Below are positions 44,819 through 64,000 of a stretch of DNA of 64,000 bases, piece by piece (positions within the stretch are counted from its first letter, which is position 1; each line of letters starts with the position of its first letter). The position numbers and the translations under genes were made by a program. Where the stretch lies: positions 5,344,001-5,408,000 of the forward strand of contig OZ251539.1 of NCBI GenBank assembly GCA_965243135.1. The letters are read 5' to 3'. The stretch comes from Alphaproteobacteria bacterium (GTDB lineage Bacteria; Pseudomonadota; Alphaproteobacteria; MPNO01; UBA830). Below the pieces are notes generated by a model. That model was not told the DNA's origin, searched no databases, and saw only the letters and a program-made list of their open reading frames with translations.

Positions 44819-45985
44819 ATGTTCATCGAACGCCCAGTGGTCCGATCCCGTCTTCGGGAGGCTTTCTCCGTTCATCCGGTCGCGGCTCTCACCGGACCGC
44901 GGCAGTGCGGCAAGACCACGCTGGCCCGAGCCTTGGCGGCCGACGTTTCCTCGAGCGCGTTCTTCGACCTCGAGAGCGCGGTCGACCGGCGGAGACTGCA
45001 GGCGCCCGAACTGACGTTGAGCGGCCTGACCGGACTCGTGGTCATCGACGAAGTGCAGCGTATGCCGGAGCTCTTCGAAACGCTGCGAGTCCTCGTCGAC
45101 CGGCCCGAGAACGCGGCGCAATTTCTCGTTCTGGGCAGCGCCTCGCCGTCGCTCGCGCGGGGAGTTTCGGAATCGCTGGCCGGACGAATGGGTCTGGTCG
45201 ACCTTTCCGGTTTCGATCTTTCGGAAACGGCCTCGGCCCCGTGGCGTCGCCTCTGGCTTCGGGGAGGTTTTCCGTGCGCGTACCTCGCGCCGAACGACCG
45301 CATGTCCGCCTTGTGGAGGCGGAACTTCACGCAGACGTTTCTCGAACGCGACATTCCCCAACTCGGGATCACGGTTCCCGCCGAAACGCTCCGCCGATTC
45401 TGGACGATGTTGGCGCACTATCACGGCCAGGCGTGGAACGCCGCCGAGTTCGCCCGCGCTTTGGGAACGAGCGAAGGCACGGCGCGCAGATATCTCGACA
45501 TTCTCGTCGGGGCCTTCATGGTGCGGACGCTTTCTCCCTGGTTCGCGAACCTCGGGAAACGCCAGATTAAGTCGCCCAAGATCTACGTTCGCGATACGGG
45601 ATTGCTGCATGCTCTCCTCGGTTTGGATACGGCGGACGAGGTCGACGGCCATCCGAAAGTCGGCGCTTCCTTCGAAGGGTTCGCGATCGAGCAGCTCGCG
45701 GGCGCGTTCGGGGGCGACAGAGTCTGGTTTTGGGCGACGCACGGCGGCGCCGAGCTCGATCTGCTCGTCGCGCAGGGCGGCAAGCGTTACGGTTTCGAGT
45801 GCAAGATCGCCGACGCTCCCGGCACGACGCGTTCGATGCGGACGGCGATCAAAGATCTCGGACTGGAGCATCTGTGGGTGGTTTATCCCGGAACCACGCC
45901 TTATGCGCTGGATGACAGGATTTCCGTTTTGCCCGTAGCGGATATCCCCCAACTTGCCGGCGCCTTGGGGAAGGGCGAGCGGTAG
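44819..45985 (+). CDS. AAA_14 + DUF4143 ATP-binding protein
   Basis: GPRQCGKTT, IDEVQ, LGSAS, RGGFP, KSPKIYVRDTG and ELDLL..GFECK. Confidence 0.92.
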   Translation: MFIERPVVRSRLREAFSVHPVAALTGPRQCGKTTLARALAADVSSSAFFDLESAVDRRRLQAPELTLSGLTGLVVIDEVQRMPELFETLRVLVDRPENAAQFLVLGSASPSLARGVSESLAGRMGLVDLSGFDLSETASAPWRRLWLRGGFPCAYLAPNDRMSALWRRNFTQTFLERDIPQLGITVPAETLRRFWTMLAHYHGQAWNAAEFARALGTSEGTARRYLDILVGAFMVRTLSPWFANLGKRQIKSPKIYVRDTGLLHALLGLDTADEVDGHPKVGASFEGFAIEQLAGAFGGDRVWFWATHGGAELDLLVAQGGKRYGFECKIADAPGTTRSMRTAIKDLGLEHLWVVYPGTTPYALDDRISVLPVADIPQLAGALGKGER

Positions 45986-47447: not shown

Positions 47448-49362
47448 TCGCGCGCTCCGCGCAGGCTCCGGGCGGCGCGGCGGCCGGAAAGCTGATAGGC
47501 GGACATGCCGACCGCGAGAATCGCGCCGGCGGCGTAGGCGTGGTAACGCAGATCCGCTTCGATGCCCGTCGCGGCGGAAACCAGAGGTCCCGCCGGCAAC
47601 AGCAGGCAGGCCGCCGCCGCCGCCCAGATCGGGCGTTCGCAAGGCGTCCTGCGGCCGAGGCCGGAGCCTTCGAGAAACCTGGCCCATGCGACGACGCCGA
47701 GAAAGCAGGCCGCGACGGTGACGGCGACGTCGAGGGGCGTGCCGTCGAGCAGCAGCGGCGTGTAGACGAACAGGAACGGCATGACGAGGATCATCGACGC
47801 GAGTTTCAGAGCCTGGTTGCCCGTCCTGACCGGATCGCCTCCCGAGATCGCGCTCGCCGCGTAGGCGGCGAGCGCCACGGGCGGCGTGACGGCGCTGACC
47901 ACCGCCACCCAGTAGCTGATCATGTGGGCGGCGAGGGTCGGAACCCCCAGTTCGGTCAGGGCGCCGACGGCGAAGATCGCGAGGATCACGTAGCTCGCGA
48001 CGATCGGAAGCCCCATGCCGACGACGTAGCCGGCGACGATCACCCAGAAGATCGTGACCGGCAGCATTTCTCCGCTGGCCGCGACGAGCAGGTGCGAAAT
48101 CCGGCCCGGCAGATCGCTCTGCGTGGCGGCCGACAACAGGATGCCGAGCACGCCGGCGATGCAGCTGACCACGAGGGTGTTGCGCGCTCCGGCTTCGAGG
48201 GAAATCCAGACGGTTCGCCCGAGTTCGGCGAAGGCGTCCCCCAGGCCTCGCGCGGCGCGGGCCTCCTCGCCGACCGCGACGGCGCCCGGAGACGGCGCCC
48301 GGGCCGCGCTCCGCTCTCCGGCGGGTCCGAGCAGCGCGATCTCGCCGATCTTGAGGACGATGAAGGCGAACAACGCCCAATAGGCGGCGTCGTCCGCCCC
48401 GACGCCGATATGGTCGTCGACGAACCAGGTGAAGGGCGGGCCGATCCGCAGGCCGAAGAAATAGACGAGGAGGCCCGCCGCGGCCGATATCGCGAGATAG
48501 GGCTTCCACGAGGTCCGCGAACGCCGCGTCGGGATCGACGCCAGCAGATCGGTCAGCTTCAGCATGACGATCAGGACGATCGTCTTCGCCGCGGCGAGGA
48601 ACGCGGAGTCCCCGGTGACCAGGAGGTAGATCATCGCCGGGATCGGCGTCAGCAGATGGAGGCGGGTCAGAATGTCGCGCCACGGCGGCAATTCGTCCGC
48701 GGACACGCCGTGAAGCCTGTCTTGCCGCGCCCGGAAATACACGATCAGGCCGACGGAAAAGTAGTAGAGAAGAGCGGGAATCGCGGCGATCTTGACGATC
48801 TCGAAGTAGCTCGTCTCCGTCAGCTCGGCCAGCAGGAACGCGCCGGCCCCCATGATCGGCGGCATGTACGCGCCGCCGGTCGAGGCCGCCGCCTCGACTC
48901 CGCCGGCGAATTCCGGCCGGTAGCCCACGCGCTTCATGAGCGGGATCGTGAACGTGCCCGTCGTCATCACGTTCGCCACGCCGCTTCCCGAAATCATGCC
49001 GAAGAAGCCGCTGCTGATGACCGCCGCGAGCCCGGGACCTCCCGTTCGCCGGCCGGTGATCCTGTAGGCCGTGTCGATTATCAGCGCGCCGAGGCCCGTC
49101 TTCTCGAGGAATGCGCCGAGGATCACGAAGATCACGATGAACGTCGCGAACACTTCGGCGATGAGCCCGAGCATGCCCTCGGTCGACAGCATGAGGAACT
49201 CCATGACGCGGGCGGCGCGGTTGCCGGGGTGGTTGAGGACCCCGGGCATGGCCTGGGCGACGACGTCGAAGGAGTAGACGAAGAAAAGGAAGCCGAGCAG
49301 CGGGATGAGCGGCCCGACGATTCGCCGGGCGATCTCGAAACTGACCGCCGCCATCATCACAA
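47444..49362 (-). pseudogene. TRAP fused (4TM/12TM) permease, 5'-truncated
   Basis: SGSGVANVMTTGTFTIP, EAAASTGG..PPIMGAGAF and TPPVALAAY. Homology begins abruptly mid-helix (IVMMAAVSFEIARR) with no RBS. Confidence 0.85.
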
Positions 49363-49483
49363 TGTGATGCGAGCAGTCGTGCAAGCCGGCAACTGTCCCC
49401 CCAGCCAGCGTTCACGCCATGATCAATAGGAGGGGGCAGAGAAGGGACCGTAGCCCGGAAAAGGCCGTTCGTCAACAGACACG

Positions 49484-49603
49484 AAGAAAAAGGGGCCGGT
49501 GATCCCCGACCCCTGATTCGTCTTCGCGAAAACCCGCGCCCCACTGCTGGGACTGCGAACCTCGCAAAACATCGAGTTTCCTCGACAGCATCGCCAAAAG
49601 CTG
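49484..49603 (-). ncRNA. Putative counter-transcribed RNA (ctRNA) of the repC replicon
   Basis: Minus-strand promoter TTGACG-N17-TAATCT and intrinsic terminator AGGGGTCGG-loop-CCGGCCCCT-TTTTCTT (49484-49514), antisense and upstream of repC. Confidence 0.7.
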
Positions 49604-49609
49604 TCGGAG

Positions 49610-49638
49610 AGATTACAGGGATGGTTTGCGCCCGTCAA
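49610..49638 (-). promoter_or_regulatory. Sigma70 promoter for the ctRNA
   Basis: -35 at 49633-38, -10 at 49610-15, 17-bp spacer. Confidence 0.72.
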
Positions 49639-49710
49639 CCGGAATTTTCGGCGGGCCGGAATTTTTTCGCGAAGGGCCGCAAGCCTTTCACCGGGTCGGC
49701 TATTGCGACC

Positions 49711-51078
49711 ATGGATCTCCAGACTTCGGGCAGCGGCGCCTGCCCGGCGGGCGGAAGGCCCCGCCGCGAAATTCACTATCGGGCCGAATCGGCAGCCGCC
49801 GCGTTCATCGGCCTGCCGGAAGGCGACGACCGGTTCGCCGTCGTCCGGTTGCTCAGGGAAGTCGGGCGCGAAGCCGGCTGGACCGGCCGGCTGATCGAGC
49901 ATCTCGAATTGCTGATCGGCTTCACGCGGCCCCAGGACTGGTTCTGCGGACACCGTCCGATCGTTTATCTCCAGGTCCAGTCGGCGGCGGAACGGCTGGG
50001 CCTTTCCGCCTCCCAGATACAGCGCAACGAGAGGCGGCTGATGCAGTTGGGCGCGGTCTCGTTCCGCGACTCCGGCAACTTCCGGCGCTACGGCAAGCGC
50101 GATGGCGACGGTCGGCTCGTGGAGGCGTGGGGGCTCGACCTGTCGCCCTGCGCCGCCCTTCTGCCGCGACTCAAGCAGCTGGCGAAAGAGGCCGCCGCCG
50201 AACGGGAGGAATTCATGCGGCTCAAGCGCCGGATTTCCGCCGCGCGGCGGCGCATCGGGGCGGCCGTCGATTGCGCCGTCGCCGATTCGAAACTGACGGA
50301 GGAGGCGGCCGCCGCGGCTCGCGTCGAGCTGGACCGGCTGACGCCGCGAATCCGGGCGCGGACGCCGCTCGAAGCGTTGCGGCGGCAAGAGGACGGTCTG
50401 GACCGTCTCGACGCGCAACTGGCGGTTGCGATCGGAGCGAAAGAGCCGACCGCGCCGACGCCCGGCGCGCCGCCGGCGCCGGTCGAACGGCCCGAAGATC
50501 TGCTTTCGGGAGCCGCGGAAATGCGGGCCGCGGCCGCCGCAAATGCGGCCCAGGGACCGCATCGATGCGGCACGCAAGAATATTACAATACAAACCAAGA
50601 ATGTACGAATAAAAATATTACCGTAGCCGGGGGCCGCCCGGAAAGAGGAGCGGACCGCGCCGCCGCCGCGCCCGGAGAGCGCGCGGCTGCGGGAGCTTCC
50701 GGCGGCGCGCGGACCGTCTCTTTTACGCTGCTTCTCGACCTGCTCTCCGAAGAATTCTTCGGGTATCTGCCGCCCGGCCGTCGGGTGGGCTGGAGCGAGC
50801 TGATCTCCGCCGCGGGCCTCGTCGCCGCCGATCTCGGGATTTCGCTCCACGCATGGCGCGAAGCCTGTTACCGCCTGGGGAGGCAGACCGCCGCGACCGC
50901 CGTCGTCGTCATCGCCGCCAAGAAGGCGCGGGGCCTGATCGGTTCGCCGGGGGGCTACCTGCGCGGGATCACGCGGCGCGGCCTCGAGGGCGAACTCTAT
51001 CTCGAACGGAGCGTTTTCGGCCTGGCCAAGGGAGAGGACGGCTATCTCGTCCAGGGGCCCGAGGCCCGGTCGGCGTAG
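49711..51078 (+). CDS. repC: Plasmid replication initiator RepC (repABC type)
   Basis: TRPQDW..RPIV, RDSGNFRRYG, WGLDLSP, LGISLHAWREA and SPGGYLRG. An AT-rich patch at about 50575-50622 is consistent with an intragenic oriV. Confidence 0.85.
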   Translation: MDLQTSGSGACPAGGRPRREIHYRAESAAAAFIGLPEGDDRFAVVRLLREVGREAGWTGRLIEHLELLIGFTRPQDWFCGHRPIVYLQVQSAAERLGLSASQIQRNERRLMQLGAVSFRDSGNFRRYGKRDGDGRLVEAWGLDLSPCAALLPRLKQLAKEAAAEREEFMRLKRRISAARRRIGAAVDCAVADSKLTEEAAAAARVELDRLTPRIRARTPLEALRRQEDGLDRLDAQLAVAIGAKEPTAPTPGAPPAPVERPEDLLSGAAEMRAAAAANAAQGPHRCGTQEYYNTNQECTNKNITVAGGRPERGADRAAAAPGERAAAGASGGARTVSFTLLLDLLSEEFFGYLPPGRRVGWSELISAAGLVAADLGISLHAWREACYRLGRQTAATAVVVIAAKKARGLIGSPGGYLRGITRRGLEGELYLERSVFGLAKGEDGYLVQGPEARSA

Positions 51079-51098
51079 GGAGAACGGAGGAGGAGAAC

Positions 51099-51545
51099 AT
51101 GACGGTCCATCGAAAGGGCACGGGACCCCCGGTCTCGTTCTTGTCGTCGAACGCCCCGCGCGGCGGACGGCTCCGCCCGGTCGGAAGCTCCCGGCGCGGT
51201 CCGACGACCGGGAAGCGGCGCCCGTCGCGAGACGAAGGCGCTCGCCGGGAGCGCCGCCCTCCGGACGGCGGCCTTGAACGACGCGCGGCGCCGTGCCGCG
51301 GCGAGCGGCGCCGGACTGCCGAAAGCGTCCGCGCCGCCGGCCCGGAGATCTTTGACGAGGCGAAACCGCGCTCGGCAGGCGGATTCTTTAGGAACCGTCT
51401 GGCGCGGTTTCGGCGGGCGCGGCGCGCGGCGGAAGAACCCGAACGCACGGTGTTACGCGCCGGGCCGTCTGTCGCCATGAACATGGCGACGTGTATGCAG
51501 GGAACGTGCGCAAACGAGCGCGCAGAAGAAGGGAGAAAGTCATGA
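51099..51545 (+). CDS. Hypothetical Arg-rich protein translationally coupled to the recombinase
   Basis: Strong GGAGGAGG RBS; its stop overlaps the recombinase start (ATGA). Confidence 0.55.
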   Translation: MTVHRKGTGPPVSFLSSNAPRGGRLRPVGSSRRGPTTGKRRPSRDEGARRERRPPDGGLERRAAPCRGERRRTAESVRAAGPEIFDEAKPRSAGGFFRNRLARFRRARRAAEEPERTVLRAGPSVAMNMATCMQGTCANERAEEGRKS

Positions 51546-53068
51546 AGGTTTCAAAACGCGTCGCGATCTACGCGCGTTTCAGTTCGTCGCTCCAGAATCC
51601 GAAGTCGATCGAAGACCAGATCGCCCTGTGCGAGCGGCGAATCCGGGAAACGGGCGGCACGGTCGTGGCCACGTTCAAGGACGCCGGGATGTCCGGCGCC
51701 AGCATGCATCTGCGGAAGGGGCTGATCGACCTGCTGACCGCGGTGGAAGAGGGGACGATCGACATGGTTTGGGCGGAGGCCCTCGATCGCCTGAGCCGCG
51801 ATCAGGCGGACATGGTCCAGATCTACCGGCTCCTGCAATTTCACGACGTGGAACTGTGCACGCACGAGGAGGGCGAGGTTTCGGATCTCCATGTCAGCCT
51901 CAAGGGCGTGATCAACGAGACCTTCCGGACGTCGCTCTCCCAAAAGGTGCGGCGCGGCAAGCTGGGCGCCGCGACGCGCGGCCGGGTGCCGGGCCGCAAC
52001 TGCTACGGCTACCGGGTTTTGCCCCGCCTTCCGGGCGAACCCGGCGGGAAACAGGAAATCGTGCCCGAACAAGCGGAGACCGTCCGTCGCATATTCCGCT
52101 TGTACGTCGGCGGAACGGCGCCAAACGAGATCGCCCGGATCCTCAACGAGGAGGGCATTCCGGGTCCGATGGGCAGGGAATGGAGCGAAAGGGGCATCTC
52201 GGGTTGGAGGAAGCGCGGGAGCGGCATCCTGCGCAACAAGCTGTACGCCGGAATTCTGGTGTACGGCCGGACCCGCCGGTTTTCGGACCCCAGGGCGGGG
52301 CAAACCCGACCGCGTTTCGTGCCGGAATCCGAGTGGTCGGTTCGGGAAGTGCCGCATATGCGGATCGTGGACGACGAGCTCTGGCAGCAGGCGCAATTGC
52401 GGGGCTGCGCAGGTTCCGACCGGTCCCGGAGCGGCGGAAAACGCGTTCCGCATCCTCTGACGGGAGTGCTCTCCTGCGCGGTTTGCGGGGGCATCCTCAG
52501 AGTTCGGAACGGCAGAGGCTACACCTGCAAGAGGCAGGACGACAGGCGGGGTTGCGACAACAGGATGCGCATCGACGTCAGGCGGACGGAAGACCGGGCG
52601 CTCCGCGAACTGATCCGGTGGGTGGAATCGTGGCGCGAGGGTTCCGCGCTGCTCGCCTCCGGAATTCGGGAATACGAGCGAAGAAGGGACCGCCTCGAGA
52701 CGAAGATCGTAGACGGGAAGGAGAAGATAGCGCTGCTGGTCGAGAGCATCGAGCGGGGAGGAAAGGAGCCGCGGGCGGTCGCGCGGCGCATCGGCGATCT
52801 GGAGCGGTCGGTCGCCGCCCTGACGATCGAATTGAAGTCCATGCGCCGTCCGGAAGAACGCTCGGCGGCGGACCTGCTTGGGACGCTGAAGTCCGCGCTC
52901 GAGGGGCTCGCCGCCGCCGCCGCTGACGACGACACCCGGCGGGACGCGTTGCTGAAGTTCCGGGACCTGGTCGAGCGAATCGACATCTCGCCGACGGCCG
53001 AAAAGGGAGAGTTCGAGATGACGGTGCGCCCGCGCGTCGACGCGCTTGTCGCGCTGGTTCTCGAATGA
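51542..53068 (+). CDS. Large serine recombinase (resolvase + recombinase + Zn ribbon)
   Basis: AIYARFSS, LDRLSR, YGY, ILRNKLYAG, CAVCG..YTC..GC and a coiled coil. Confidence 0.95.
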   Translation: MKVSKRVAIYARFSSSLQNPKSIEDQIALCERRIRETGGTVVATFKDAGMSGASMHLRKGLIDLLTAVEEGTIDMVWAEALDRLSRDQADMVQIYRLLQFHDVELCTHEEGEVSDLHVSLKGVINETFRTSLSQKVRRGKLGAATRGRVPGRNCYGYRVLPRLPGEPGGKQEIVPEQAETVRRIFRLYVGGTAPNEIARILNEEGIPGPMGREWSERGISGWRKRGSGILRNKLYAGILVYGRTRRFSDPRAGQTRPRFVPESEWSVREVPHMRIVDDELWQQAQLRGCAGSDRSRSGGKRVPHPLTGVLSCAVCGGILRVRNGRGYTCKRQDDRRGCDNRMRIDVRRTEDRALRELIRWVESWREGSALLASGIREYERRRDRLETKIVDGKEKIALLVESIERGGKEPRAVARRIGDLERSVAALTIELKSMRRPEERSAADLLGTLKSALEGLAAAAADDDTRRDALLKFRDLVERIDISPTAEKGEFEMTVRPRVDALVALVLE

Positions 53069-53113
53069 CCGCAGGCCGCCGGAAGCCGAGAGGCTTCCGG
53101 CGGCCTGCCCGCT

Positions 53114-53752
53114 TCAGTCGGCCCGCGCCAATTCGTCGAGCAGCGCGGCGCTCGCGCGGCGCAGGAGTTCCAGCGCGAGTTCCGGCGGCGGCGGCCGTTC
53201 GATCCACTGGATTTCGCAAAGGAGGTAGCCGGGGCCGGCCAGCCAGGCGATGCCCCTCGAATCGTCGATCTCGTCGTCGTCGACCGCGACGCCGTCCGGG
53301 TCGCAACCGACGATCCGGCAAACGAATTGCGGGCTGCCCATATGGACGAGGTATTCCCGCCGGTCGTCCTCCCCGTGCGCGAACAGCCACTCGTCCGGCG
53401 GTCTCCGCGTTTCCGGCTCGCCGGTTCCGTCCGCGATGCGGCAGACCAGCGCCGGCGTCGCCAGGTGAACGACATAGTTCCGCCACTTGCCGGAGGCGTC
53501 CTTCGGGCCGCGCGCGTACAGCCAGTCGTCGCGCCGGAATTCCGGCACGGGCGCGGTGCGGAGGCGGTAGAACTCTTCGAAGCGGGCCCGGTATTCGGGC
53601 GGGATCGGGCAGACGCCGCCCGCCCAGCCGCGGGCGTCGGCGAGAGGAATGGAGAAGGATTCGGCGACCGCCCCGACGGCATCGAGCGACGGGCCGCAAG
53701 CGACGACCGCGAACGCGCGGAATCGGGCGGATGTCCAGTGTCTGTCGTTCAC
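53114..53752 (-). CDS. Hypothetical protein with an HTH-like N-terminus and a duplicated YxVH..P..VCRI domain
   Basis: WLYARG..YVVHLATPALVCRI and WLFAHG..YLVHMGSPQFVCRI. Start uncertain. Confidence 0.65.
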   Translation of the reverse strand: MNDRHWTSARFRAFAVVACGPSLDAVGAVAESFSIPLADARGWAGGVCPIPPEYRARFEEFYRLRTAPVPEFRRDDWLYARGPKDASGKWRNYVVHLATPALVCRIADGTGEPETRRPPDEWLFAHGEDDRREYLVHMGSPQFVCRIVGCDPDGVAVDDDEIDDSRGIAWLAGPGYLLCEIQWIERPPPPELALELLRRASAALLDELARAD

Positions 53753-53985
53753 GGCAGGTCTGCGCCCCCATGCCGGGAAGTGCTGCTCGACTTCCGGCGG
53801 GGAGCCCCTCGGACCGACGGCGGCTCCGCGCCCGGAAGCGCACGGCGCCGAATGATGGTAGGTTGCGGCGGAATGGTCAAACGGGTTTTTTTCGGACGGG
53901 GCGTTCGCCTTGACTCGCCGGCCGACCCGTCGATAGGGGGGCGTTTCCAAACGTTCTTGCGTGGAAAAGTAAAGGAGAATGACAG

Positions 53986-54941
53986 ATGGGCAGGGCATTC
54001 GTGGTCAAGGCTGTGCATGACGGTTTTCCTGTCGAAGGCGTACCAGCTCGCGGCGGGACATGCGCGCATCGGGTGGTCCAGTCTGGACAGCCAGGATCTG
54101 CGCGTCGTTCAGCGGAATCTGGAGCAGGGACATGGCCTCGACGACGATCAGGAAGACGCGAAGAGGTGTCGCGGTTTCCTCACCGAAGTGGGCGCAGGCG
54201 ATCTTCTCCTTTATCCGCATCAGCCGGCGAGAGATCAGTTCACGGTCGTGCGGGTGACCGGCGACTACGGTTACGATAGCGGATTGGAGAAAGACTTTCG
54301 GTCGTTTCGGCCGTGCGAGCTCGTCACTCCGAAACCGGTGTCGCGGTACGATGAAATCGTCCCTTCCTCGCTGCGTCACCGAATGGTGCGTCCAGGCCGT
54401 TTTTCCGAGGTAAGCGATACCGGTCCGTTGCGGGACTGCCTCGATCGCCTGTCGAAATCTGGACGTGACCAAGACGGTACGAACAGTGCAGCTCTCACAC
54501 GCATCCACGAGAAATTGAGAGAATCGCTTCCCGGTCAGCAAGAGTTCAGCAGAACCGACCTTTCGCGCAAGTTTTGCGCGGAACTGTCGCATGGGGTATT
54601 TCTGCGAACTGCAGGAAGGGCCTGCCGAGGCGGGTTCGGACATCGTCCTCACCGTCGGTGACCGTTTCCTGCCTGATAACGTCAACTTCAGGGTTGGCGT
54701 GCAGATTTTTTCCTACAAGGACTCGGTCGACGAACACGCGCTTAAAGAGAAGTTGGAACAACTTCTGCAAGGCTGGAAACGGAACGATTACGGAGCGCTT
54801 CTGACGACGGGCCGTTGCGACGAGGAGGCGGTGGCGATGCTTCGTCGTCACAATACGGACGATCGCCAACGACCGGTCAGGTTGATCGACGGCGACGAGC
54901 TTGCCGTTCTGCAGCATTTCCCGCCAGGGGGCGGGACCTGA
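53986..54941 (+). pseudogene. Mrr-like restriction endonuclease, frameshifted
   Basis: RIGW, GDLLLYP and VTGDYGY; then in a shifted frame MGY..EAGSDIV..GVQ..LTTG..VRLIDGDEL (Mrr_cat pattern). Confidence 0.75.
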
Positions 54942-55432
54942 CGGACGGCGCAACCGCGGCCTCCGGGTTCGCCAACGCGGGAAAGACAACTGCGCCAGCC
55001 GACGGGTCGGCGTGCGCTACGACAGGTTTTCCGCGTGGTTCCGGAAAGGCGGATCGCCGGTTCGGAACGCAGCACCGTTCGCCAGGCGGCGCCTGCCGGA
55101 CATGCCGGCCGTGCGACGGCGCATCGCGCCGTCCTCTTCGCCAACTTCCACGCCGTTCGTCTCGACAATGGCCGTCGTCGATAATGCCGGAGGGCCGGTC
55201 GTTCAAGCATCCTGTCGCGCACTCGTGACGGCGGACGGTTTCAGGCGATCCGCGCCGGCAATTCCTCTCGCTGCCGCGGGTTGTTGCCCAGGCAAGCGGT
55301 CGAAAGGTAAAACGGCGAAGCGCTTTGTCTGGCCGGGCGACGCCCGCCATTGCCGGAGGCTCCCCGGGCATCCCCCGGTCGGCCGCCGGAGACGGGGCAG
55401 GCGGCGTTCGCGCGTTGTGGAAGCAGCTGGTT

Positions 55433-57166
55433 ATGGAGACAGTACGGACCGGGCGCAGCCCAAGCGCCCTCGGGGAACAACTGGCGCCGGTGCTGTTGCG
55501 AATGCGGCGGGCGCGGGTCGAACCCGTGTGCCAGGTGACGATGTCGGTTCCAACCGACGATGTCTATGCAACGTTCGGCGCGACGCGGACCGAGGCGCTG
55601 CGGTGGATGCAGGAACGAGCGGGCCGACGGTTGCCGGCCGAGGCGTGGGACGGCGGCAGTTTCGATCTGGCCGATATCGGGGCGCCGCGGACGGAGGCGA
55701 CGTTCCTCGAAGAAATCGGCTACTGGGCGGGGCGGGTGGACGCCGTCGACGCGACCGCGCCGGAACGTTCCAGAGATACCGTCGGATTCAAGTCCATAAT
55801 CTAAATATTTGTGGACGCCGTCGACGCGACCGCGCCGGAACGTTCCTGGACCACCGAAACCGCGGTCGCGAAGGTCGCCGGGACGATCAGGTTCGGCGCG
55901 CGCCTCACCTGCGTCGTCCGCGGGGAAAGCGAGCCGTTCGTTCCGTCGGTTCCCGGGCCCGTGAAGCAGGTCGTCGACGGATGCGGCGGCGTTCTCGACG
56001 GCCGGTCGATCGGCGGGGGGCCCTGGCTCGTCGATACGCCGGAAAAGGCGTCTCGGCTCGTCGAGTTTATGTCCAGTCCCGAGCGCCAATGCGACGTTCT
56101 CGCTATTTCGACTCGGGGTTCGAGCGACGATCCCGACGCCACCCTGATTCAGGCCCGATCCGTGTTCGAGCGGACGATCGGAGCCGCCCATGTCGTCGTC
56201 CTCACGGCGACGGGCACCTACGCCCTGACCGAGCTGGTCGGAAAGGAGCTGTCGGTCTTCCGGCAGGCCGTCCGGACGTACAGGCCTGGTTTCGATCCGG
56301 AAGGCGCGGCGCCTCGCGAACATCCGTTGGCGCTCGGCATGCGCATAGCGGACTGGCCGGGGGGACCGTCCGGTTTCGAGGATTTCCTCGTGGCCAGCTG
56401 CCTGCGCGGCACCGTCGACCGGCCCGATCGCGAACGCCTGCTGCCGTCCTATGTCGCGGTCAAGCAGGCCGCGCAGAAGTTGCGCAAGAAAACCGCGGCC
56501 GCCGGTTCGATAACGGACTCCGAGCGCGTGGCGGTGCTGGAAAACGAAGAGCTCAGGAGGGACAACCAGGATTACGAAGCCCTGCTCGAGATCGCCGAAG
56601 AGGAGCTGAGCCAGGTTCGGGACGAGCGCGACGCCGCGAGAGGCGAAATCTGGCGCCTCAAGAACCGGGTCGAATATCTGGAGCGGCAGGACATCCGGGG
56701 CCCGGTTGCCAAAGACGAAATACCGGACGCTTTCGACGATCTGGAACGATGGGCGGCGCAGCATCTGGCCGGGAAGGTGACGCTTACCGGCCGCGCGATA
56801 CGGGCCGCGAAGGATTCGCCGTTCGAGGATGCGCGTCTCGCTTATCGCGCGCTCCTCATCCTGCGGGACCGCTACGTTCCCATGCGCCGGGAGGGCGGTC
56901 TCGATCTGAAGGAGGCGTACCGAAAGGCGCTGGAGAAGGAAGCGCTTCAGGAGCAGCCGACGTTCGCGGGAACGAGATCCGGGGAGCACGGAGACGTTTA
57001 TTTCGTCAGGCACGGGGGGAGAAGGCGGGAACTCGACCTGCACCTGAAAGGAAGCGACTCCCGGGATCCACGTTTCGGCTTTCGCCTGTACTTTTTCTGG
57101 GACAACGAGAACGAGGAGGTCGTCGTGGGTTCGTTACCGAACCACCTCAAGACGAGAATCACCTGA
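55433..57166 (+). pseudogene. Coiled-coil protein with RelE-like C-terminus (putative defence effector), interrupted by a 75-bp insertion
   Basis: Both ORF halves are in the same frame; the stop at 55802-04 lies inside the insert. C-terminus HLKG..DPRFGFRLYFFWD..VVVGSLPNHL. Confidence 0.72.
55736..55846 (+). repeat. 36-bp perfect direct repeat flanking a 39-bp unique AT-rich insert
   Basis: GTGGACGCCGTCGACGCGACCGCGCCGGAACGTTCC at 55736-71 and 55811-46. Confidence 0.97.
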
Positions 57167-57550
57167 ACGGCGACTGGCCGGGCGTCCCGGAGGTCGGCTG
57201 AACTGCCGGCGACATCGGCTTGCGGTCTGTTTCGACCTCTTGCGCCCGGAGAGCCGGGCGGCGGAGGGATCGGCCGTTCCTTCGACGAGCGCTACGGAAA
57301 ATGTCTGGACTTTCATGCGGCTTCGCGGAAGCCAATTCCTTGCAGGAACTTTCGGGATCCGCCGGAAAGTCGGAATGCTTGCCTGCCCATCCCGCCGCCA
57401 AGGGCGAACGCATTCGAGGAAGCGGAGGTCCGAATCGTGGCGGCGGGCGGCCGAAAAAATGATCGTTCACGACTTCGTTTCAGCCAATGGCGCGGCGGGA
57501 TCTCCACGAGACGATCCGGTACGATGGCGCACGCGGGGGGCGGTCGTCCG

Positions 57551-58144
57551 ATGAAGATTTTCCTTGTTCTTGCGCTCGTTTTGGCAGTGCAAGGCGGATC
57601 GGCAGCGGCCCAGACATTCGAGGAATCCGAAGCGGCCTATAACCGCGGCGATTACACCACGGCTTTACAAGGCTTTCGACGGCTTGCCGAACAGGGAAAC
57701 GCTGGCGCTCAGTACAACCTCGGGGTTATGTACGCCCGCGGCGAGGGCGTTCCGAAGGGTGCCGCAGAGGCGGCGAAGTGGCACCGCCGCGCCGCCGAGC
57801 AGGGGGAAGCCGAAGCTCAGGCCATCCTCGGGGTGATGTACTCCCAAGGCACGAGCGTCCCGCAGGACGACACGGAAGCTGCGAAGTGGTATCGCCGGGC
57901 CGCCGAGCAGGGACACGCCGGAGCTCAGCACCTCCTCGCGGGCATGTACTACCAAGGCACGGACGCTCCGAAAGATGACGCCGAGGCGGCGGGCCGACAA
58001 AAAAATGGCACAGCGCAAACGGCTCAAGTTGCGGTCGGGGTGACGGAAATCCACAGTAATGCTGTCCTAATCTCAAACCACAAGAACACTATCCAAAGGG
58101 ACAGATTTCGTGTGGTTGCACAGGATGGGGTTGTCTGTGAATGA
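57551..58144 (+). pseudogene. Secreted Sel1-repeat protein, truncated at about 57990
   Basis: Signal peptide; three Sel1 units (AQYNLGVMY..G.GVP..EAAKW.RRAAEQG); the frame then runs into an IS end. Confidence 0.88.
57985..58026 (+). repeat. Orphan copy of the IS right end also present at 61334-61375
   Basis: GGCGGCGGGCCGACAAAAAAATGGCACAGCGCAAACG(G/C)CTCA, 41 of 42 identical. Confidence 0.9.
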
Positions 58145-58183
58145 GAGGCTTGGAAGCGAGAGGGGAAGAAGGAGAAAACGAAG

Positions 58184-58825
58184 ATGACGACAGGTAGGCC
58201 AATGGCAGTGCACCGCCGGGTGTTCCAGCTACTGGAGGAGAGTAACAACGGGAGCAAGTTTCCCATAGGCACAGCATTTCAGTGCCAAGAGGGACTGCTG
58301 CTCACAGCCAAGCACGCAGTGGAGCAAACGAACAAGGCAATAAGCGTGAGGGCGTACGAAGGAGGGAGACAAGGCTCGGACGTACCAGTGCAGGTGGCAG
58401 GAACAAGAAAGGGGGACTTAGCCGTGCTGAGCGTGAAGTGGCCAGACGACTTGCCTACAGAGAAATTCCAGGTGGGCTACCCCCCAGCGACGCAGAGGTC
58501 GCTGGGGCTTGAGGTAATGGTAACAGGTTTCCCGGACCTGCAAGGCGGAGGGCAAAACCGGTTGAGGGCAATCAGGAGCTGGATCCAGTGTTCGTACGAA
58601 AAGGACGCGCTAACCCACTACGAGCTACCGCACCCGGCATTCCGAGGGCTGAGCGGAAGTCCAGTGTTGTTCCACGACTGGGGCGTATCCAATGGGCTGG
58701 ACTACGCAATCGGCATGGTCGTGGAAAGTGTAGCGCACGAACAGGAAGACGGGCACGGCAACAAAGTAGGAGTAGCCTACTGGGCGAAAGCGGTGGACTT
58801 GTGCGAGGCGCTGTTCGGAAGCTGA
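58184..58825 (+). CDS. Trypsin-like serine protease, cytoplasmic, foreign composition
   Basis: Triad LLTAKH, DLAVL and GLSGSPV; no signal peptide; purine-rich, lower-GC coding strand. Confidence 0.85.
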   Translation: MTTGRPMAVHRRVFQLLEESNNGSKFPIGTAFQCQEGLLLTAKHAVEQTNKAISVRAYEGGRQGSDVPVQVAGTRKGDLAVLSVKWPDDLPTEKFQVGYPPATQRSLGLEVMVTGFPDLQGGGQNRLRAIRSWIQCSYEKDALTHYELPHPAFRGLSGSPVLFHDWGVSNGLDYAIGMVVESVAHEQEDGHGNKVGVAYWAKAVDLCEALFGS

Positions 58826-58959
58826 AGCAGGACTGGGTATGAGCAATCACGATAATCGATGCTCTCGCTTTTTTTGATGGGGTGTGATTGCCATGGAGGA
58901 GGGGACCGGTTTCCGTTTCCGCTCGGCCCGTTGTCGGGAACCGGAAGCGTGCACGCGGC

Positions 58960-59888
58960 GTTCACCTCCCTACGACGGACGGCCCCGCACGGGTGACCGG
59001 AGGTGCGAGGCAGTATGTCGGGTGTATGAACGGCGCATCCCTCAAAGACCATTTCCTTGAGAACGCTATTGACGGTACTGGCGCGCATTTTCGCCGCGTC
59101 CCGGATCTGCCGCTGAGAAAGCGGAGTGTCGGCAAGCAAGCTTGCGCTTGCGAGGCGACATGACGGGAGCTTCGGAGATGGCTTCGACGATCTGCAGCGA
59201 CAGAATCGGTGTCTCGCGCAACTCAAGAGCAATCTCGTCCGGACTTGCGGAAGCGCGATGCTCGACGGTCAACAGAATACGGTGCTTTCTGCGCCGCAAA
59301 TAAAGGTTGGAGTCGCCCCAAGCATGCAGTTCGGAAGAACCGCGCAACGCCTGTCCGCCTCGCGCATGGGCGCTCTTGCGGGCATGGTGGACGAGGACGA
59401 CAGCGGCGTCGAAGTTGCGTTGCAGGTCGCGGAGACAAGCGAGCAACGGTGCGACTTCGCCAGCGGCATTCTCGGCGGTGGAGGCGAACCAAAGGATCGA
59501 GAACCAGCAGGCGTGGCCGGACGCGGCGAACCGTCAGGCGCTGCCTGTCGCCGTCCAGATCGAGGCGCACGGCGGAAACGTCGATCACGTCGATATCGAG
59601 GTTGTTGAGGTCAGTGCCGGCGGCTCGCCCGTCGAGGCGCTCGCGAACGACATGGGCGGCGTCTTCGACGGCGAACAGCAAGACACGCCCCGAAGCGGCG
59701 GGGAAGCGCCGCAGGCAGGGCGTACCGGTCGCGACGGCGACTGCGAGATCAAGAGCGAGGAAAGATTTGCCGCATTTCGGCTCGTCGATGCCGACCGCCT
59801 GTTCGCTCCACAGCTGTTCGACGAGCCACCGTCGCTCTTGCGGTTGCTCGGCAAGCTCCGCGGGCCGGCGGGTAGGGAAAACGTTCAT
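58960..59888 (-). pseudogene. AAA_25/RepA-like ATPase of a mobile element, multiply frameshifted
   Basis: EPKCGKSFLALD, LVLDPLVRLH, LVHHARK and LRGSSELHAWGD; wHTH-like tail. Confidence 0.8.
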
Positions 59889-60391
59889 GACCGCGCTCCT
59901 CTGCGTTTGTCGGGCGTGAAGATCTCGAAGAACAGGCCGAGTTCGGTAATCACGCGCTCGGCCGCAGCGGCAAGCAGGTTATCGGCCATTCTGGTGAGGG
60001 AGCGGTAGTTTCCCGCAGCGTGAAGAGCTTCCTTGAGGCTCATGAGGTTGGGGTTGCCAGCCTGTTCGAGAAGGTGATCAAGGCAGGCAGCCAGTTCCCT
60101 GCGTTCGGCATAACTCATGACCAAGCGTTGGCGGATGCGGGACTCCAAGGGCTGCAGGTCGTTGCGTTGCAGCTTGTCGGTAAGGCGCGCATCGCCAGCC
60201 AGCACGACGCTGAGGATGGATCGGGAGTCGAACTCCGTGGCGGCAAGCAGGCGCAGTTCGTCGACCAGCAGGACGGGACGCAGCGCTTCAAGGTGGTCCT
60301 GCCAGCGCCCGCGCAGCACCTTGAAGCCGCCCCATCTATTGTGGGGGCGCAGCGGGACGTCGAAGAGTTCGCCCGCGATAGAAGTCGGCAA
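59885..60391 (-). pseudogene. ExeA-family ATPase fragment (transposon-associated)
   Basis: PVLLVDE, VVLAGD and PLESRIRQR; internal deletions and no N-terminus. Confidence 0.8.
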
Positions 60392-60393
60392 CG

Positions 60394-61375
60394 TTGGAGG
60401 AGGGGTGCGGCAGCGTCACCCAGGCGTCGAGAGCCGAAACCAGGGAGCTGGACGCGATGGTGGACAGGCTGTTCGAGGGAACGCCGCTGCTGGCCGGGCG
60501 CTGCAAGGACTTCAGCGCGGATCGGGGACTCGACAGCGGGCCGCTCAAGGCCAAGCTGTGGGACGAGCACCGCATCCGCCCGTTGATCGACACGCGCCTC
60601 ATGTGGCGGGAAGAGAAGAAAGATCCCGACTACGACCCTGACAAGCTGATCGTCCGCCCGCTCTTCGATGACAATGTCTACCATACCGAGAGGGGCGAGG
60701 TGCTGTGCAGATGTCCCGCAACCAACGTTCAGCGGCACATGGCGCGGCTTCGAAGCGAACCGCGGGGCGTGCGGCACCCTCAAGTACCGATGCCCGGCAG
60801 CGGCCTTCGGCTTGCGCAGGCCGCAAGGAATGCCACCGGGCCGCCAGGTGCCAGGCCGGCGAGTACGGTCGCATCGTCCGCGTCGACCTGGAAAAGCATG
60901 ACCGCCGGATCTTCACGCCGGTCCCTTGGGGCAGTCCCTCCTGGAAGCGCGGCTACAATCGCCGTTCCGCCATGGAGCGGATCTACAGCCGGGTCGACAA
61001 CGCTTACCGCATGGAGAAACACTACGTTCACGGTCTGAAGCAAATGCGTCTGCGACTCGGCCTGGTGACGGGGGTCATGATGGCGATGGCGCTCGGGCAC
61101 CTGCGGGCGGAACGTCAGGACCGCATGCGGTCGCTGGTCGGTCCGGTCGAGCTGCGCGACACGGGATGACCGCGGCGGTCGTCTGACTGCCCCCCCCCCC
61201 CGCAACTGGCCGCCTGCATTCAGGCCACGGCCCGGCTCGCCCCGGGTTCGCGGCGCGGTGCCGCTACAACAGAATGTTCGCTTTTAGTTCTAAAAAACTA
61301 AGCGTCCGTGCGATCCTTGCGGCCCCGTCGGCGGGCGGCGGGCCGACAAAAAAATGGCACAGCGCAAACGCCTCA
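60394..61375 (+). mobile_element. 5'-truncated IS (IS5/IS1182-like DDE transposase, frameshifted) with right end
   Basis: FSADRGLD, LKYRCPAA and YNRRSAMERIYSRVD; terminal sequence repeated at 57985. Confidence 0.8.
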
Positions 61376-61739
61376 GTCGCGTGCGGCGCGGTCTGGCCCC
61401 CGGAAACGCGGGCCATCCCAGTCCTGTTCGGTGCCGCATTGGCGCCCCCCGTCGCCAGCGGTGTCAGATACCCACATAAAGCGCCGTACCACGCTCCTCG
61501 GAGGTCCTGTCACCGTGCTCCGCGCGCCTTTCTTCGTCTCCGGAAAACCTTGTCGCGGGCTGGACAGGAGAGGTTTGACGCGAACCTCCTCTCGTTCCGC
61601 GCCTGTGCTCGAAGACCGACCCGGTAGCAGAACCACCCTTACCGGACAGAAGCCCGACGAGAACGAGGACATATGCTTGACGTAACGCGGATGCGGCGTC
61701 TACGCTCGGTTTCGGAGGCCACAGCCGAACGGAAGCACG

Positions 61740-62021
61740 TTGATCGTCGGCTTCGCGGACAAGAAAACGGAGACCTTCTACCGGGGAGGCAGGGTCGCGG
61801 CCTTCTCCGGCTTTGCGCGCACTGCGTCGCGCAAGCTGGACCAGCTGGATGCAGCCACAAGCCTTCGCGATCTGTCTCGCCCCGGTAACCGACTGGAAGC
61901 TTTGAAGGGCCGCCGCAAGGGGCAATGGAGCATCCGGATCAACGACCAGTGGCGGGTCTGTTTTGAATGGCCGGAGGGAAGCCCCGGTCCGACCGATGTG
62001 GAAATCGTCGACTACCACTGA
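61740..62021 (+). CDS. higB: HigB-type RelE/ParE toxin (plasmid maintenance killer)
   Basis: RKLDQLDAA, PGNRLEALKG, SIRINDQWRVCF and VEIVDYH. Confidence 0.93.
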   Translation: MIVGFADKKTETFYRGGRVAAFSGFARTASRKLDQLDAATSLRDLSRPGNRLEALKGRRKGQWSIRINDQWRVCFEWPEGSPGPTDVEIVDYH

Positions 62022-62035
62022 GAAGGAGGCATGTC

Positions 62036-62344
62036 GTGACACGCGATCCCATCCACCCGGGCGAAACGCTGCGCGAGGACCTGGAGGCACTCGGGATGAG
62101 CGCGGCCGAGCTGGCTCGGCGGATTGAAGTTCCGGTGAACCGCATCACCGAAATCCTCAACGGTCGCCGCGCCGTTACCGGCGACACGGCGCTGCGCCTG
62201 GGGCGCTTCTTCGGGACATCGGGCGAGTTCTGGCTCAATCTTCAGAAGCTCTACGAACTGCGGCTCGCGGAGCGGAAGAACGGTGCGGAGATCGCCCGTC
62301 TGTCTTCGCTGGACGACGACGACCGTCTGCGCGCTTCAGGCTGA
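62036..62344 (+). CDS. higA: HigA (VapI) antitoxin
   Basis: IHPGETL, NRITEILNGRRAVTGDTALRL and FWLNLQ. Confidence 0.94.
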   Translation: MTRDPIHPGETLREDLEALGMSAAELARRIEVPVNRITEILNGRRAVTGDTALRLGRFFGTSGEFWLNLQKLYELRLAERKNGAEIARLSSLDDDDRLRASG

Positions 62345-62385
62345 GGCGCCCCGGACCGGAGGCGGAAACCGCGTCGGGCGGCCGC

Positions 62386-62874
62386 TCAATCTGTTTCCAC
62401 CGCCAGATCGCGCTCAATGCTGTCGCCGATACGTGCGGCGGAAGCCTTGACGGTATCGCGGGCGAGATGGGCGTAGCGCGCCGTAGTCTGAACCTGGGTA
62501 TGGCCGAGCAACTTCCCGATCATCGGTAGGCCCTCGCCGAGCGCCAGCGCGCGGGAGGCGAAGCTGCGACGGAGATCATGGATGCGCACGCTGTCGAGCC
62601 CGGCGCGCGACCGGATGCGCCGCCCAGGGATGTTGCAGGTCGCGGCGACCGCTGCGATACCGCACTTGTCAGATTTGTTGAATTTGCGAGCCAATTGCTC
62701 GGGTGAACGATTCGAACCGATGGCGAGAATGCGCTTGCGGTCGGGAGCGTTGATGATTCCGTCGATCCGGTCGGGATCTTCGCTCGGTTTGCCGTTCTCG
62801 AAGAGGAAACTCCCGTTCGGCGCTTCGTAGGGATAGTCGAGCGTGCGGGCGATCCGCTTCCTCTGTTCGTCCAT
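62386..62874 (-). pseudogene. Chimera: N-terminus of a GGCT-like hypothetical fused to a tyrosine integrase C-terminus
   Basis: YPY..ILAIGSNRSPEQLARKF, then RIHDLRRSFAS..LLGHTQVQTTARYAH. Confidence 0.8.
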
Positions 62875-63349
62875 TGTCGAATTCCCTGCTCAGGGCCGCC
62901 CGAACTACGGCCGATGCGCCAAAAGACTGCGGCCTGCCCGCCTCGAGTCGAGCATACGGGCGGGCGAGTCGCTGCAACCGCCCGCTACGCGCCAGGTCGG
63001 CAACTGCAGAATTCCGCCGCTCGCACTGCCACGACTCGGCGGGCAGGCCGACGAACGGCGTTCGAACTCGCTTGAGAGGCGTCGAACGTTCCGTTCCGCA
63101 CACGACTTCCGACAGGACCGAACTGGCCGAACGCGGTGACATGCGGTCGACGCCGCCCTGACTGCTCTTGCCATGCGTAGGGTTCCGGAAACGGCCCGCC
63201 GAGAAAACGCGAGGGCGGCTGAATTGTCGACGATATCGGGCGGCGGCTCTGATCCCTTGCGCCCGGCTGCGAACCTTCTTTCTGTCGCCGGAAGAGCGTA
63301 GTAGTTTCCCTCGTCCCGTTCGCGCCGCGGGGCCGGAAAGAAGGAGCCG

Positions 63350-63575
63350 ATGGCGAGAGACATCTACCAGGAGGTCACCGACACGATCCTGGCCCAGCTC
63401 GAAAAAGGCGTGCGCCCGTGGCAGCGGCCGTGGGAGACCGGCGTGGAGGCCGAGAAGCCGGCTCCGACCCTGCCCCTCCGCCACAACGGCGAACCCTACC
63501 GCGGCACCAACGTCGTTCTCCTCTGGTCCGCCGCCTCCGAGCGCGGCTACGACAAGCCCACGACCTACCGACGGG
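63350..63575 (+). pseudogene. ardC: ArdC (DUF1738) antirestriction/ssDNA-binding protein N-terminal fragment
   Basis: DIYQEVTDTILAQLEKGVRPWQRPW..YRGTNVVLLW..GY; homology is lost after about 75 aa. Confidence 0.85.
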
Positions 63576-64000
63576 CGCAGGTTTTCGTCCTCGTAGCCGA
63601 GGGCCAGAAGATGGCCGTGGCGCTGGCCTTGGTTGTCCGACGGATGCTGCCCTTGCTCGCTGATAGTCGGCGACGCCGGGTGCAAATCTGATATTGCCAA
63701 ATTGAAAAATCTATAAGGTGTTGATTTTTAAGGATTAACAAAGTTTGCGCGATAGCGCTTCAAGGCCAAAATCAGCGATTTCGTGACAAATCGCCGTTCC
63801 GGGCGCGGATTTTGTCACGATGGCGGGGGGGGGGGGGGGCGCGAAAAAAGGAATGCTCCAAGCCGCAAGATGCGGTAAAATGTTGGCATCAAACCACAAC
63901 ATCAGGAGCATTCCCATGCCAGCATTACAGCCTTCGGCCGGTTTGTCCATCGATTTCTCGAAGCTCCCCGCGGCGACTGCCGAGGCATTCCAGTCAGCCG

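Follow-up and report, generated by a model that had tools for sequence, protein, structure and literature searches.

A repC-serine recombinase module at the left end of a putative 169-kb integrative conjugative element with an IncI-type mating apparatus in an alphaproteobacterial chromosome

Why would a plasmid-type replication gene stand next to the gene of a large serine recombinase (LSR) inside a bacterial chromosome, directly against a TRAP permease gene that has lost its 5' end? This question is raised by a 64,000-nucleotide stretch of alphaproteobacterial DNA (hereafter the window), which comprises bases 5344001-5408000 of a single contig of 6,103,318 bp with 65% GC (OZ251539.1, assembly GCA_965243135.1). 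A sequence-only reading of the window had proposed a small element with repC as its replication gene, which excises by the LSR, replicates by RepC and targets a TRAP gene. The explanation that we favour, with a probability of about 0.72, is that the region forms the left end of an integrative conjugative element (ICE) of 169,380 bp, here called EL3, which was inserted by the LSR into a TAXI-type TRAP permease gene at an AC dinucleotide and would be replicated by RepC once excised. The observations that carry it are a target gene split in two, two defined junctions, three copies of the element in one genome (EL1, EL2 and EL3), an element of the same layout in another genus, repC and LSR genes that are intact, and the loss of the parAB genes in EL1 and EL3. 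Judged by gene content, the conserved left-end module consists of an attachment (att) site, a leader of ~350 bp, repC, parA, parB and the LSR gene, whose start overlaps the preceding stop, and the conserved right end consists of a mating apparatus of IncI/Dot-Icm type, thin pilus included; a MobF relaxase lies in between.

The module and its split target gene

The repC gene is located on the plus strand at 49711-51078, counted from the Met at 49711, which is conserved as the start in the sister element (in its longest form the frame opens at 49621), and encodes a replication initiator possessing both the N- and the C-terminal RepC domain (PF03428, 115 bits; PF11800, 82 bits), with a score of 193 bits for the RepABC_RepC profile NF040974 (cut-off 150). 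It is followed on the same strand by an Arg-rich open reading frame (ORF) of 148 codons, running from the ATG at 51099 to the TGA at 51545 with the ribosome-binding site GGAGGAGGAG in front, and by the LSR gene (51542-53068), whose ATG at 51542 overlaps the TGA of the small ORF as ATGA. The LSR, a putative integrase/excisionase of 508 aa, displays the complete integrase-type architecture of Resolvase, Recombinase and Zn_ribbon_recom domains (PF00239, 82 bits; PF07508, 83 bits; PF13408, 29 bits) and a YARFSS motif in its N-terminus. It weakly matches CcrB, XisF, TP901-1 and YokA, and a search of solved structures returned distant relatives alone (best PDB E-value 8.5e-7); the same search with RepC yielded no relative. 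Frames and domain matches bear out the co-orientation of the three genes and the ATGA coupling described in the sequence-only reading, and domain scans within the window found no adjacent repA, repB, relaxase or phage gene, as it had stated; a relaxase, a coupling protein and a type IV secretion system (T4SS) are present farther inside the same element, beyond the window. The module had been drawn as far as 53752, which is too long: the LSR stops at 53068, and 53114-53998 is a conserved minus-strand gene convergent with it. Its 294-aa product, for which profile searches gave no family match, is the best-conserved frame between EL2 and EL3 (56% over 116 aa; GC at third codon positions 0.81) and is a candidate accessory or directionality factor.

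On the other side of repC, ~350 bp away, ends the TRAP gene, whose 3' part (47444 to ~49358, minus strand) forms the B arm of attL. It matches the TAXI-type TRAP fused permease model TIGR02123 with 481.6 bits over profile positions 104-592 of 615, in agreement with the earlier remark that the permease lacks its 5' end. Orthologues in four relatives (75-81% identical, open frames of 828-875 aa) run ~195 residues farther upstream, and tblastn with their N-termini as queries located the missing 5' half at genome 5562735-5563337 on the minus strand (61-69% identity, E 1e-73 to 1e-87), 169 kb away at the far end of the element. There the 5' part of the gene (5562741-5563337, minus strand) stands behind an NMT1_3 (TAXI-type) binding-protein gene directly upstream of it. 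Both halves are still open frames, and joining the two flanks restores the ..AVMMAAVSF.. reading frame of the orthologues, indicating that the gene was split by an insert of ~169 kb.

The dinucleotide AC, present at 49359-49360 in attL and ending the element at genome 5562739-5562740, is the sole sequence common to both junctions of EL1 and EL3, whose flanks differ. Since the sequence shared by EL1 and EL3 begins and ends at AC, the crossover was set there, which gives EL3 its length of 169,380 bp; a crossover at a 3-bp ATG/CAT overlap was dropped on the grounds of the same comparison. The P' arm of attL (49361-49421) contains at 49362-49369 the 8-bp arm ATGTGATG, mirrored by CATCACAT at the right end, so that the deduced attP of EL3 has perfect 8-bp arms CATCACAT / ATGTGATG around GACA. 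The attP of EL2 has perfect symmetric arms of 6 bp and 10 bp around GTAC, with TA within GTAC, and a conserved word, GCAGTCGT, keeps the same 12-nt spacing in the att regions of EL2 and EL3. Serine integrases typically leave a 2-bp crossover, a dyad-symmetric attP and no long direct repeat. With attL and attR thus rebuilt, the junctions, which share AC alone and yield a symmetric attP, look like LSR products and fit LSR integration. The finding of both gene halves and both junctions supports the view that the module belongs to an integrated mobile element splitting the TRAP gene.

Close to these ends lies a perfect 17-bp inverted repeat, CCAGCGTTCACGCCATG and its complement, at 49405-49421 and at genome 5562696-5562712, 44 nt inward of the left end of EL3 and 27 nt inward of its right end; in EL2 the repeat is found 42 and 28 nt from the ends with two changes. 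In a circular form the two copies would stand on either side of attP, amid the divergent genes pilN and repC, and the repeat may be an operator or accessory site.

Could the TRAP/repC junction be an assembly error, given that the genome is rich in repeats? We consider this chance practically negligible. In assembled Logan contigs of four public runs (X1, X13, X16 and X17), in which uncovered parts carry no meaning, an X16 contig spans 49308-49723 without a single difference, contigs of X13 and X17 extend to 49388, and a unitig of X13 begins at 49359. Moreover, the missing TRAP half is found precisely where the element ends on the other side, and the junctions of EL1 and EL2 follow the same logic. 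An X1 metagenome contig matches 48995-49360 with one difference and then diverges from the window, as an unoccupied site would.

Copies of the element in the genome and in relatives

The three RepC matches of the genome pair with its three LSR Recombinase-domain matches, co-oriented in 3/3 cases, and the LSR gene is 2.2 kb away from attL in every copy. Homology between the elements begins at the junction: EL1 and EL3, whose LSRs are 99% identical, agree in 96% of positions from the first base onwards and in 98.6% over the last 29 kb, with different flanks, and EL2 (~101 kb; LSR 56% identical to that of EL3) shares 66-84% DNA identity with the other elements at its ends. A TRAP gene as the target of the whole family does not hold up, as the other two copies reside in a Cupin_2 gene and an AAA-ATPase_like/PDDEXK_9 gene and a relative uses a tRNA-Met gene. 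All three copies lie inside the single 6.1-Mb contig, and none forms the autonomous extrachromosomal replicon that defines RepC_soli plasmids.

RepC relatives (36-47% identity) were detected in 10 of the 78 genomes of the order, the present one included, belonging to two genera, and LSR relatives in 19 of the 78. Among the 15 RepC loci of the nine other genomes, ten have a co-oriented LSR within 5 kb downstream; the remaining five comprise a locus at a contig end, two fragments, of which one lies on a short contig and the other on the opposite side of an LSR, a locus with LSR fragments 8 kb away and one with an LSR 13 kb away. The pairing of repC with an LSR in the absence of repAB, first noticed at the window locus, thereby recurs at 3/3 loci of the genome and 10/15 loci of its relatives.

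What the window does not display is the usual content of the module. In EL2 and in the six loci retrieved, repC and the LSR gene are separated by genes for a short ParA and a ParB, the parB stop of EL2 overlapping the LSR start as ATGA. ParA belongs to ParA_partition NF041546 (181 bits, NCBIfam), and ParB is generic. RepA models reach 45-47 bits against a cut-off of 348 and RepB models 45-64 bits against 201.5 in the partition genes of the relatives, far below these cut-offs, so the module is not a permuted repABC operon; the place upstream of repC, where repA and repB would be expected, is taken by the disrupted TRAP gene, and the partition genes of the relatives are downstream. The normal module of the family is repC-parA-parB-LSR, and parAB was lost here. 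A parAB stretch of 1.6 kb is replaced in EL1 and EL3 by ~370 bp of unrelated sequence. In tblastx only the last ~145 nt of the small ORF (51099-51545) align to the 3' end of EL2 parB and the rest is noise, so we abandoned the idea that the ORF is a recognisable parA/parB remnant throughout. It has no Pfam or NCBIfam match and a weak codon-position GC signal (0.70/0.67/0.77), and EL1 retains the frame, with an in-frame indel of 9 nt; standing in the place of parA-parB, it is probably a relic.

The same layout is found in another genus, from a different family of the order, where genome G056 contains an element of 108.7 kb between 12-bp direct repeats; one of the two repeats coincides with the 3' end of a tRNA-Met gene that follows an rRNA operon. 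Its gene order is the same, with PilN 130 bp from one end and repC ~300 bp from the other, at 40-61% protein identity. Two observations concern the history of such insertions. EL2 contains a broken second LSR gene (genome 2993256-2994204) with several stops and 85% DNA identity to the LSR gene of EL3, which suggests a past tandem or nested insertion. In one genus (three loci, L037, L039 and L041, in genomes G055 and G048), several elements start with no more than the 3' end of tRNA-Met, or just the final 12-15 bases of it, and no complete tRNA gene adjoins them, which suggests tandem arrays of elements at a tRNA-Met site.

In the wider data that were searched, this lineage of RepC proved rare. 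A megablast search of 49364-64000 against 72,556 plasmid records gave no match, and RepC found nothing above 43% identity on plasmids. A search for related loci returned none with RepC alone and a single locus, at 30% identity, with an alignment of the three sequences, and a sample of 401 genomes of the class, with four candidates scored per genome, held one other RepC match (29% identity). A search of 5.8 billion proteins with RepC gave 12 matches, eight of which, each a protein cluster, are at 64-96% identity.

The comparison of copies also bears on the possibility that the LSR is a multimer resolvase or a DNA invertase, for instance of a pilV shufflon, and that another recombinase inserted the element. 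Modules of the rep-par-res type are common on plasmids, and EL3 does contain tyrosine-recombinase genes and two PilV-like Shufflon_N genes. Tyrosine recombinases, however, need an overlap of 6-8 bp, whereas the junctions share 2 bp. The distance of 2.2 kb between LSR and attL is the same in all three copies, tyrosine recombinases (PF00589) are absent from EL2 (0 of the 24 matches in the genome) and from the G056 element (0 of 82), and the Recombinase and zinc-ribbon domains are typical of serine recombinases of the integrase type. This alternative is therefore highly improbable.

Conjugation, replication and cargo genes

The window holds the left 14.6 kb of EL3 (49361-64000), which continues to genome 5562740. 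Inside it we identified a MobF/TrwC relaxase of 1581 aa with a Toprim domain (genome 5475520-5480265, plus strand; PF08751, 189 bits; NF041492 MobF, 156 bits, cut-off 100), and PF03432, the MOBP relaxase family, had no match in the genome. Next to a VirD4/TraG-type coupling protein (T4CP; ~5534383-5536740, minus strand; PF02534, 131 bits, plus TraG-D_C and TrwB_AAD_bind) lie the IncI-type T4SS genes (5536743-5552276, minus strand), encoding DotA/TraY, DotI/TraM, T4SS_TraI, DotD, TraO and TraQ, and then the thin-pilus genes up to PilN (5561149-5562675, minus strand), 65 bp from the right end. This IncI1/Dot-Icm-type apparatus is encoded in the right-hand 29 kb, which is common to all three elements. 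Scores of TraI (PF16932, 201 bits), TraM/DotI (PF11393, 121 bits) and TraY/DotA (TIGR04346, 237 bits) are above the cut-offs, TraO and TraQ match below theirs, and DotD is present too; the thin pilus resembles that of R64, with PilN, a PilQ-like ATPase, the PilS pilin and two PilV-like (Shufflon_N) proteins. The passages of Guglielmini et al. (2011, PMC3158045) on mating-pair formation type I (MPF_I) ask for at least four of TraIKLMNPQRWY; with profiles that differ from those of that paper, EL3 has at least four type-specific genes, TraI, TraM and TraY above the cut-offs and TraO/TraQ below. With relaxase, T4CP, integrase and defined chromosomal ends present, EL3 is, as predicted from its genes, a full ICE of MPF_I type. 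The small integrative-replicative element with repC alone, as first imagined, gives way to a 169-kb ICE with a MobF relaxase, a T4CP and an IncI-type T4SS.

As to replication, all three repC copies are intact, and dN/dS values of 0.27 (EL3 versus EL1) and 0.36 (EL3 versus EL2) indicate that RepC is under purifying selection. An AT-rich island inside repC (50573-50625; 35% GC in 60 nt, compared to ~70% around it) is a candidate oriV, and the motif encoded by it is conserved in all three RepC copies. In the passages on plasmid p42d (PMC3155836), repC alone suffices for replication, oriV is placed at an A+T-rich region within repC, and the C-terminal region of RepC sets incompatibility. Since the last 39 residues of RepC are identical in EL1 and EL3, the two should be incompatible as plasmids, by analogy with p42d, and integration would remove this incompatibility.

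The repC leader possesses a hairpin with a U-run, antisense to it (49514..49491, minus strand), which is present in 8/8 loci of the family, contains a G.U pair that forms on the minus strand only, and is a candidate terminator of a countertranscript. A terminator-like hairpin with a T-run on the plus strand (49646-49661), its sequence conserved in EL2, is a possible attenuator. Two conserved TGTCAAC boxes, at ~49470 and ~49630, occur at matching places in the leaders of all family members (L014 and L037-L042); on the antisense strand the first box reads TTGACA right after the U-run of the hairpin. The countertranscript RNA (ctRNA) signals of the sequence-only reading hold as far as the antisense hairpin and U-run in all eight loci are concerned, and find no counterpart in an Rfam family or a sigma-70-like promoter; a repC countertranscript is plausible.

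A life cycle can be proposed in which the LSR would excise the element as a circle and RepC would fire at the AT-rich site inside its own gene, keeping the circle from being lost, with ParAB adding partitioning where present; relaxase, T4CP and T4SS would then transfer the element, and the LSR would re-integrate it. An antisense RNA ending at the conserved hairpin would probably limit the expression of repC and hence of the downstream LSR. Replication of the excised form by RepC, which we infer, would explain the near-identical second copy, EL1, at a new site.

The middle part of all three elements is a mosaic of insertion sequence (IS) copies, among them a 1.65-kb IS (genome 5442341-5443990, inside EL3) with at least 10 copies genome-wide at 100% identity and a 2.8-kb IS (genome 5416874-5419668, inside EL3) with at least seven identical copies in the genome. 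Arrays of ~100-bp tandem repeats (~80-84% identity between copies) are found just downstream of the relaxase gene (genome 5481099-5482509 and 5487040-5487862), and in EL1 too. Within the window, domain matches identified as cargo an Mrr_cat fragment (54591-54941), a Sel1-repeat protein (57437-58144), a Trypsin_2 protein (58184-58825), HigB (61740-62021) with an HTH antitoxin-like partner gene (61967-62344), a tyrosine-recombinase fragment (62386-62874, minus strand) and an ArdC N-domain (63350-63691). The cargo named earlier is for the most part recovered here, in the form of the Mrr fragment, the trypsin-like protease, HigB with its HTH partner and the ArdC N-domain. The chromosomal DNA flanking the element contains, at 44819-45985 (plus strand), an ATPase gene with AAA_14 and DUF4143 domains.

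Fossil or functional element, known systems and meaning

Is EL3 a working element, or the fossil of an integrated plasmid or ICE, inserted by the LSR, whose repC is a leftover without replication and which is now immobile? The deletion of parAB in EL1 and EL3, the many IS insertions, the truncation of cargo genes (Mrr and ArdC, for instance), a GC content equal to that of the genome (0.649 versus 0.650) and the lack of circle evidence in the assembled contigs could all be expected of a fossil. Against this, repC, LSR, relaxase, T4CP and the main T4SS genes of EL3 are open frames, repC evolves at the low dN/dS given above, and both TRAP halves are still open. Moreover, the 96-99% identity of EL1 and EL3 at both ends implies that a copy moved or arrived recently. 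A fossil is thus unlikely, though of the competing explanations it is the one that we take most seriously.

Our preferred explanation, an ICE replicated by RepC upon excision, also has to face several observations that weigh against it. Without parAB in EL1 and EL3, plasmid-like maintenance may be decaying, and the crowding of the middle of the element with IS copies may have impaired its mobility. The assembled contigs, the one type of data available, show no circular form, no empty site in the isolate and no raised copy number; in X13, contigs of the element have about twofold depth (184-298, compared to 109-129 for the flank), as expected of two near-identical copies. The three attB sites have little sequence in common, and five tyrosine-recombinase matches are present in EL3, far from both ends, one of which is an open frame of 339 codons at 5513628-5514131. 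Concerning the mating apparatus, a VirB4/TraU-like ORF of 970 aa (5540882-5543794) matches TIGR00929 weakly (E 5.6e-5), and PF03135 (VirB4) has no match anywhere in the genome; this TraU-like ATPase is 58% identical to its counterpart in G056. An Rfam search of 48800-54200 found no ctRNA, giving four matches at chance level, and no sigma-70-like promoter was found.

A bolder version goes further and holds that theta replicon and integrase are wired into one unit, in which a copy-control RNA would dose both replication and integration; the circle would replicate, seed new sites ('copy-out, paste-in', with three copies here) and conjugate, and integration would let otherwise incompatible replicons coexist. 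We regard this as a speculative extension with the odds rather against it. If true, it would provide the first worked example of an MPF_I ICE and of RepC-driven replication of an ICE.

How does the family relate to known systems? Actinomycete elements of the pSAM2 and SLP1 type also integrate, replicate after excision and conjugate. They differ from EL3 in belonging to another phylum, in their FtsK-like transfer of double-stranded DNA, in their unrelated Rep proteins and in their small size. Elements moved by LSRs, such as those of SCCmec Ccr, Tn5397 TndX, Tn4451 TnpX, XisF, TP901-1 and SPbeta SprA, resemble EL3 in domain architecture, 2-bp crossover, insertion within genes and in-frame restoration on excision, but their sequences are very distant and they are phages, transposons or small cassettes; we know of no LSR-moved element that carries RepC or an MPF_I system. 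The IncI1 plasmid R64 shares with EL3 TraI, TraM/DotI, TraO, TraQ, TraY/DotA, DotD, PilN, PilQ, PilS and PilV-like proteins. R64, however, is a free plasmid with the MOBP relaxase NikB and a replicase other than RepC, whereas EL3 is integrated and has a MobF/TrwC relaxase with a Toprim domain.

With the repABC replicons, as portrayed for p42d in the passages cited (PMC3155836), the family has in common both RepC Pfam domains, the internal AT-rich island and a candidate antisense-strand terminator upstream of repC; it differs in the absence of upstream repA and repB, the position of the partition genes after repC, the chromosomal location and a RepC that is at most 43% identical to plasmid RepCs. 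The RepC_soli plasmids of Rhodobacterales, such as pGal_E78, combine a RepC-type replicase without repAB with a conjugative element of ~78 kb (PMC4148982), but they are free and have a VirB4/VirD4-type T4SS, and the passages on them report neither an LSR nor integration. According to the passages of the survey by Cury et al. (2017, PMC5587801), which cites SXT/R391 and ICEBs1, some ICEs have co-located partition and theta-replication genes; among 200 ICEs, 16 have theta replicases (15 of MPF_T and one of MPF_G), no MPF_I ICE was delimited, and MPF_I is called extremely rare. These ICEs resemble EL3 as chromosomal elements with integrase, relaxase, T4CP, T4SS, replication and partition genes; EL3 differs by its MPF_I apparatus, its serine integrase and a RepC that stands in one co-oriented string with the integrase. 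An earlier census, in the part that treats chromosomal MPF_I systems, lists very few, essentially the dot/icm loci of Legionella and Coxiella (Guglielmini et al. 2011, PMC3158045). ICEs with plasmid-like maintenance genes and RepC without repAB on free plasmids are, accordingly, already known. A full-text literature search for combinations of ICE, RepC, serine recombinase and MPF_I, IncI or type IVB terms, which did not cover supplementary tables, found no description of the arrangement, and a family in which a serine integrase and an IncI-type mating machine occur together with plasmid-type replication genes is apparently undescribed.

Present in two bacterial families, and with three copies in one chromosome, this family of elements joins an MPF_I apparatus, a MobF relaxase, a serine integrase and a RepC replicon. 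It supplies new pairs of LSR and att site, with attB in TRAP, cupin and ATPase genes and in tRNA-Met. It blurs the line between the RepC plasmids of alphaproteobacteria and ICEs, and lends itself to the question of why an element that integrates has retained a plasmid initiator.

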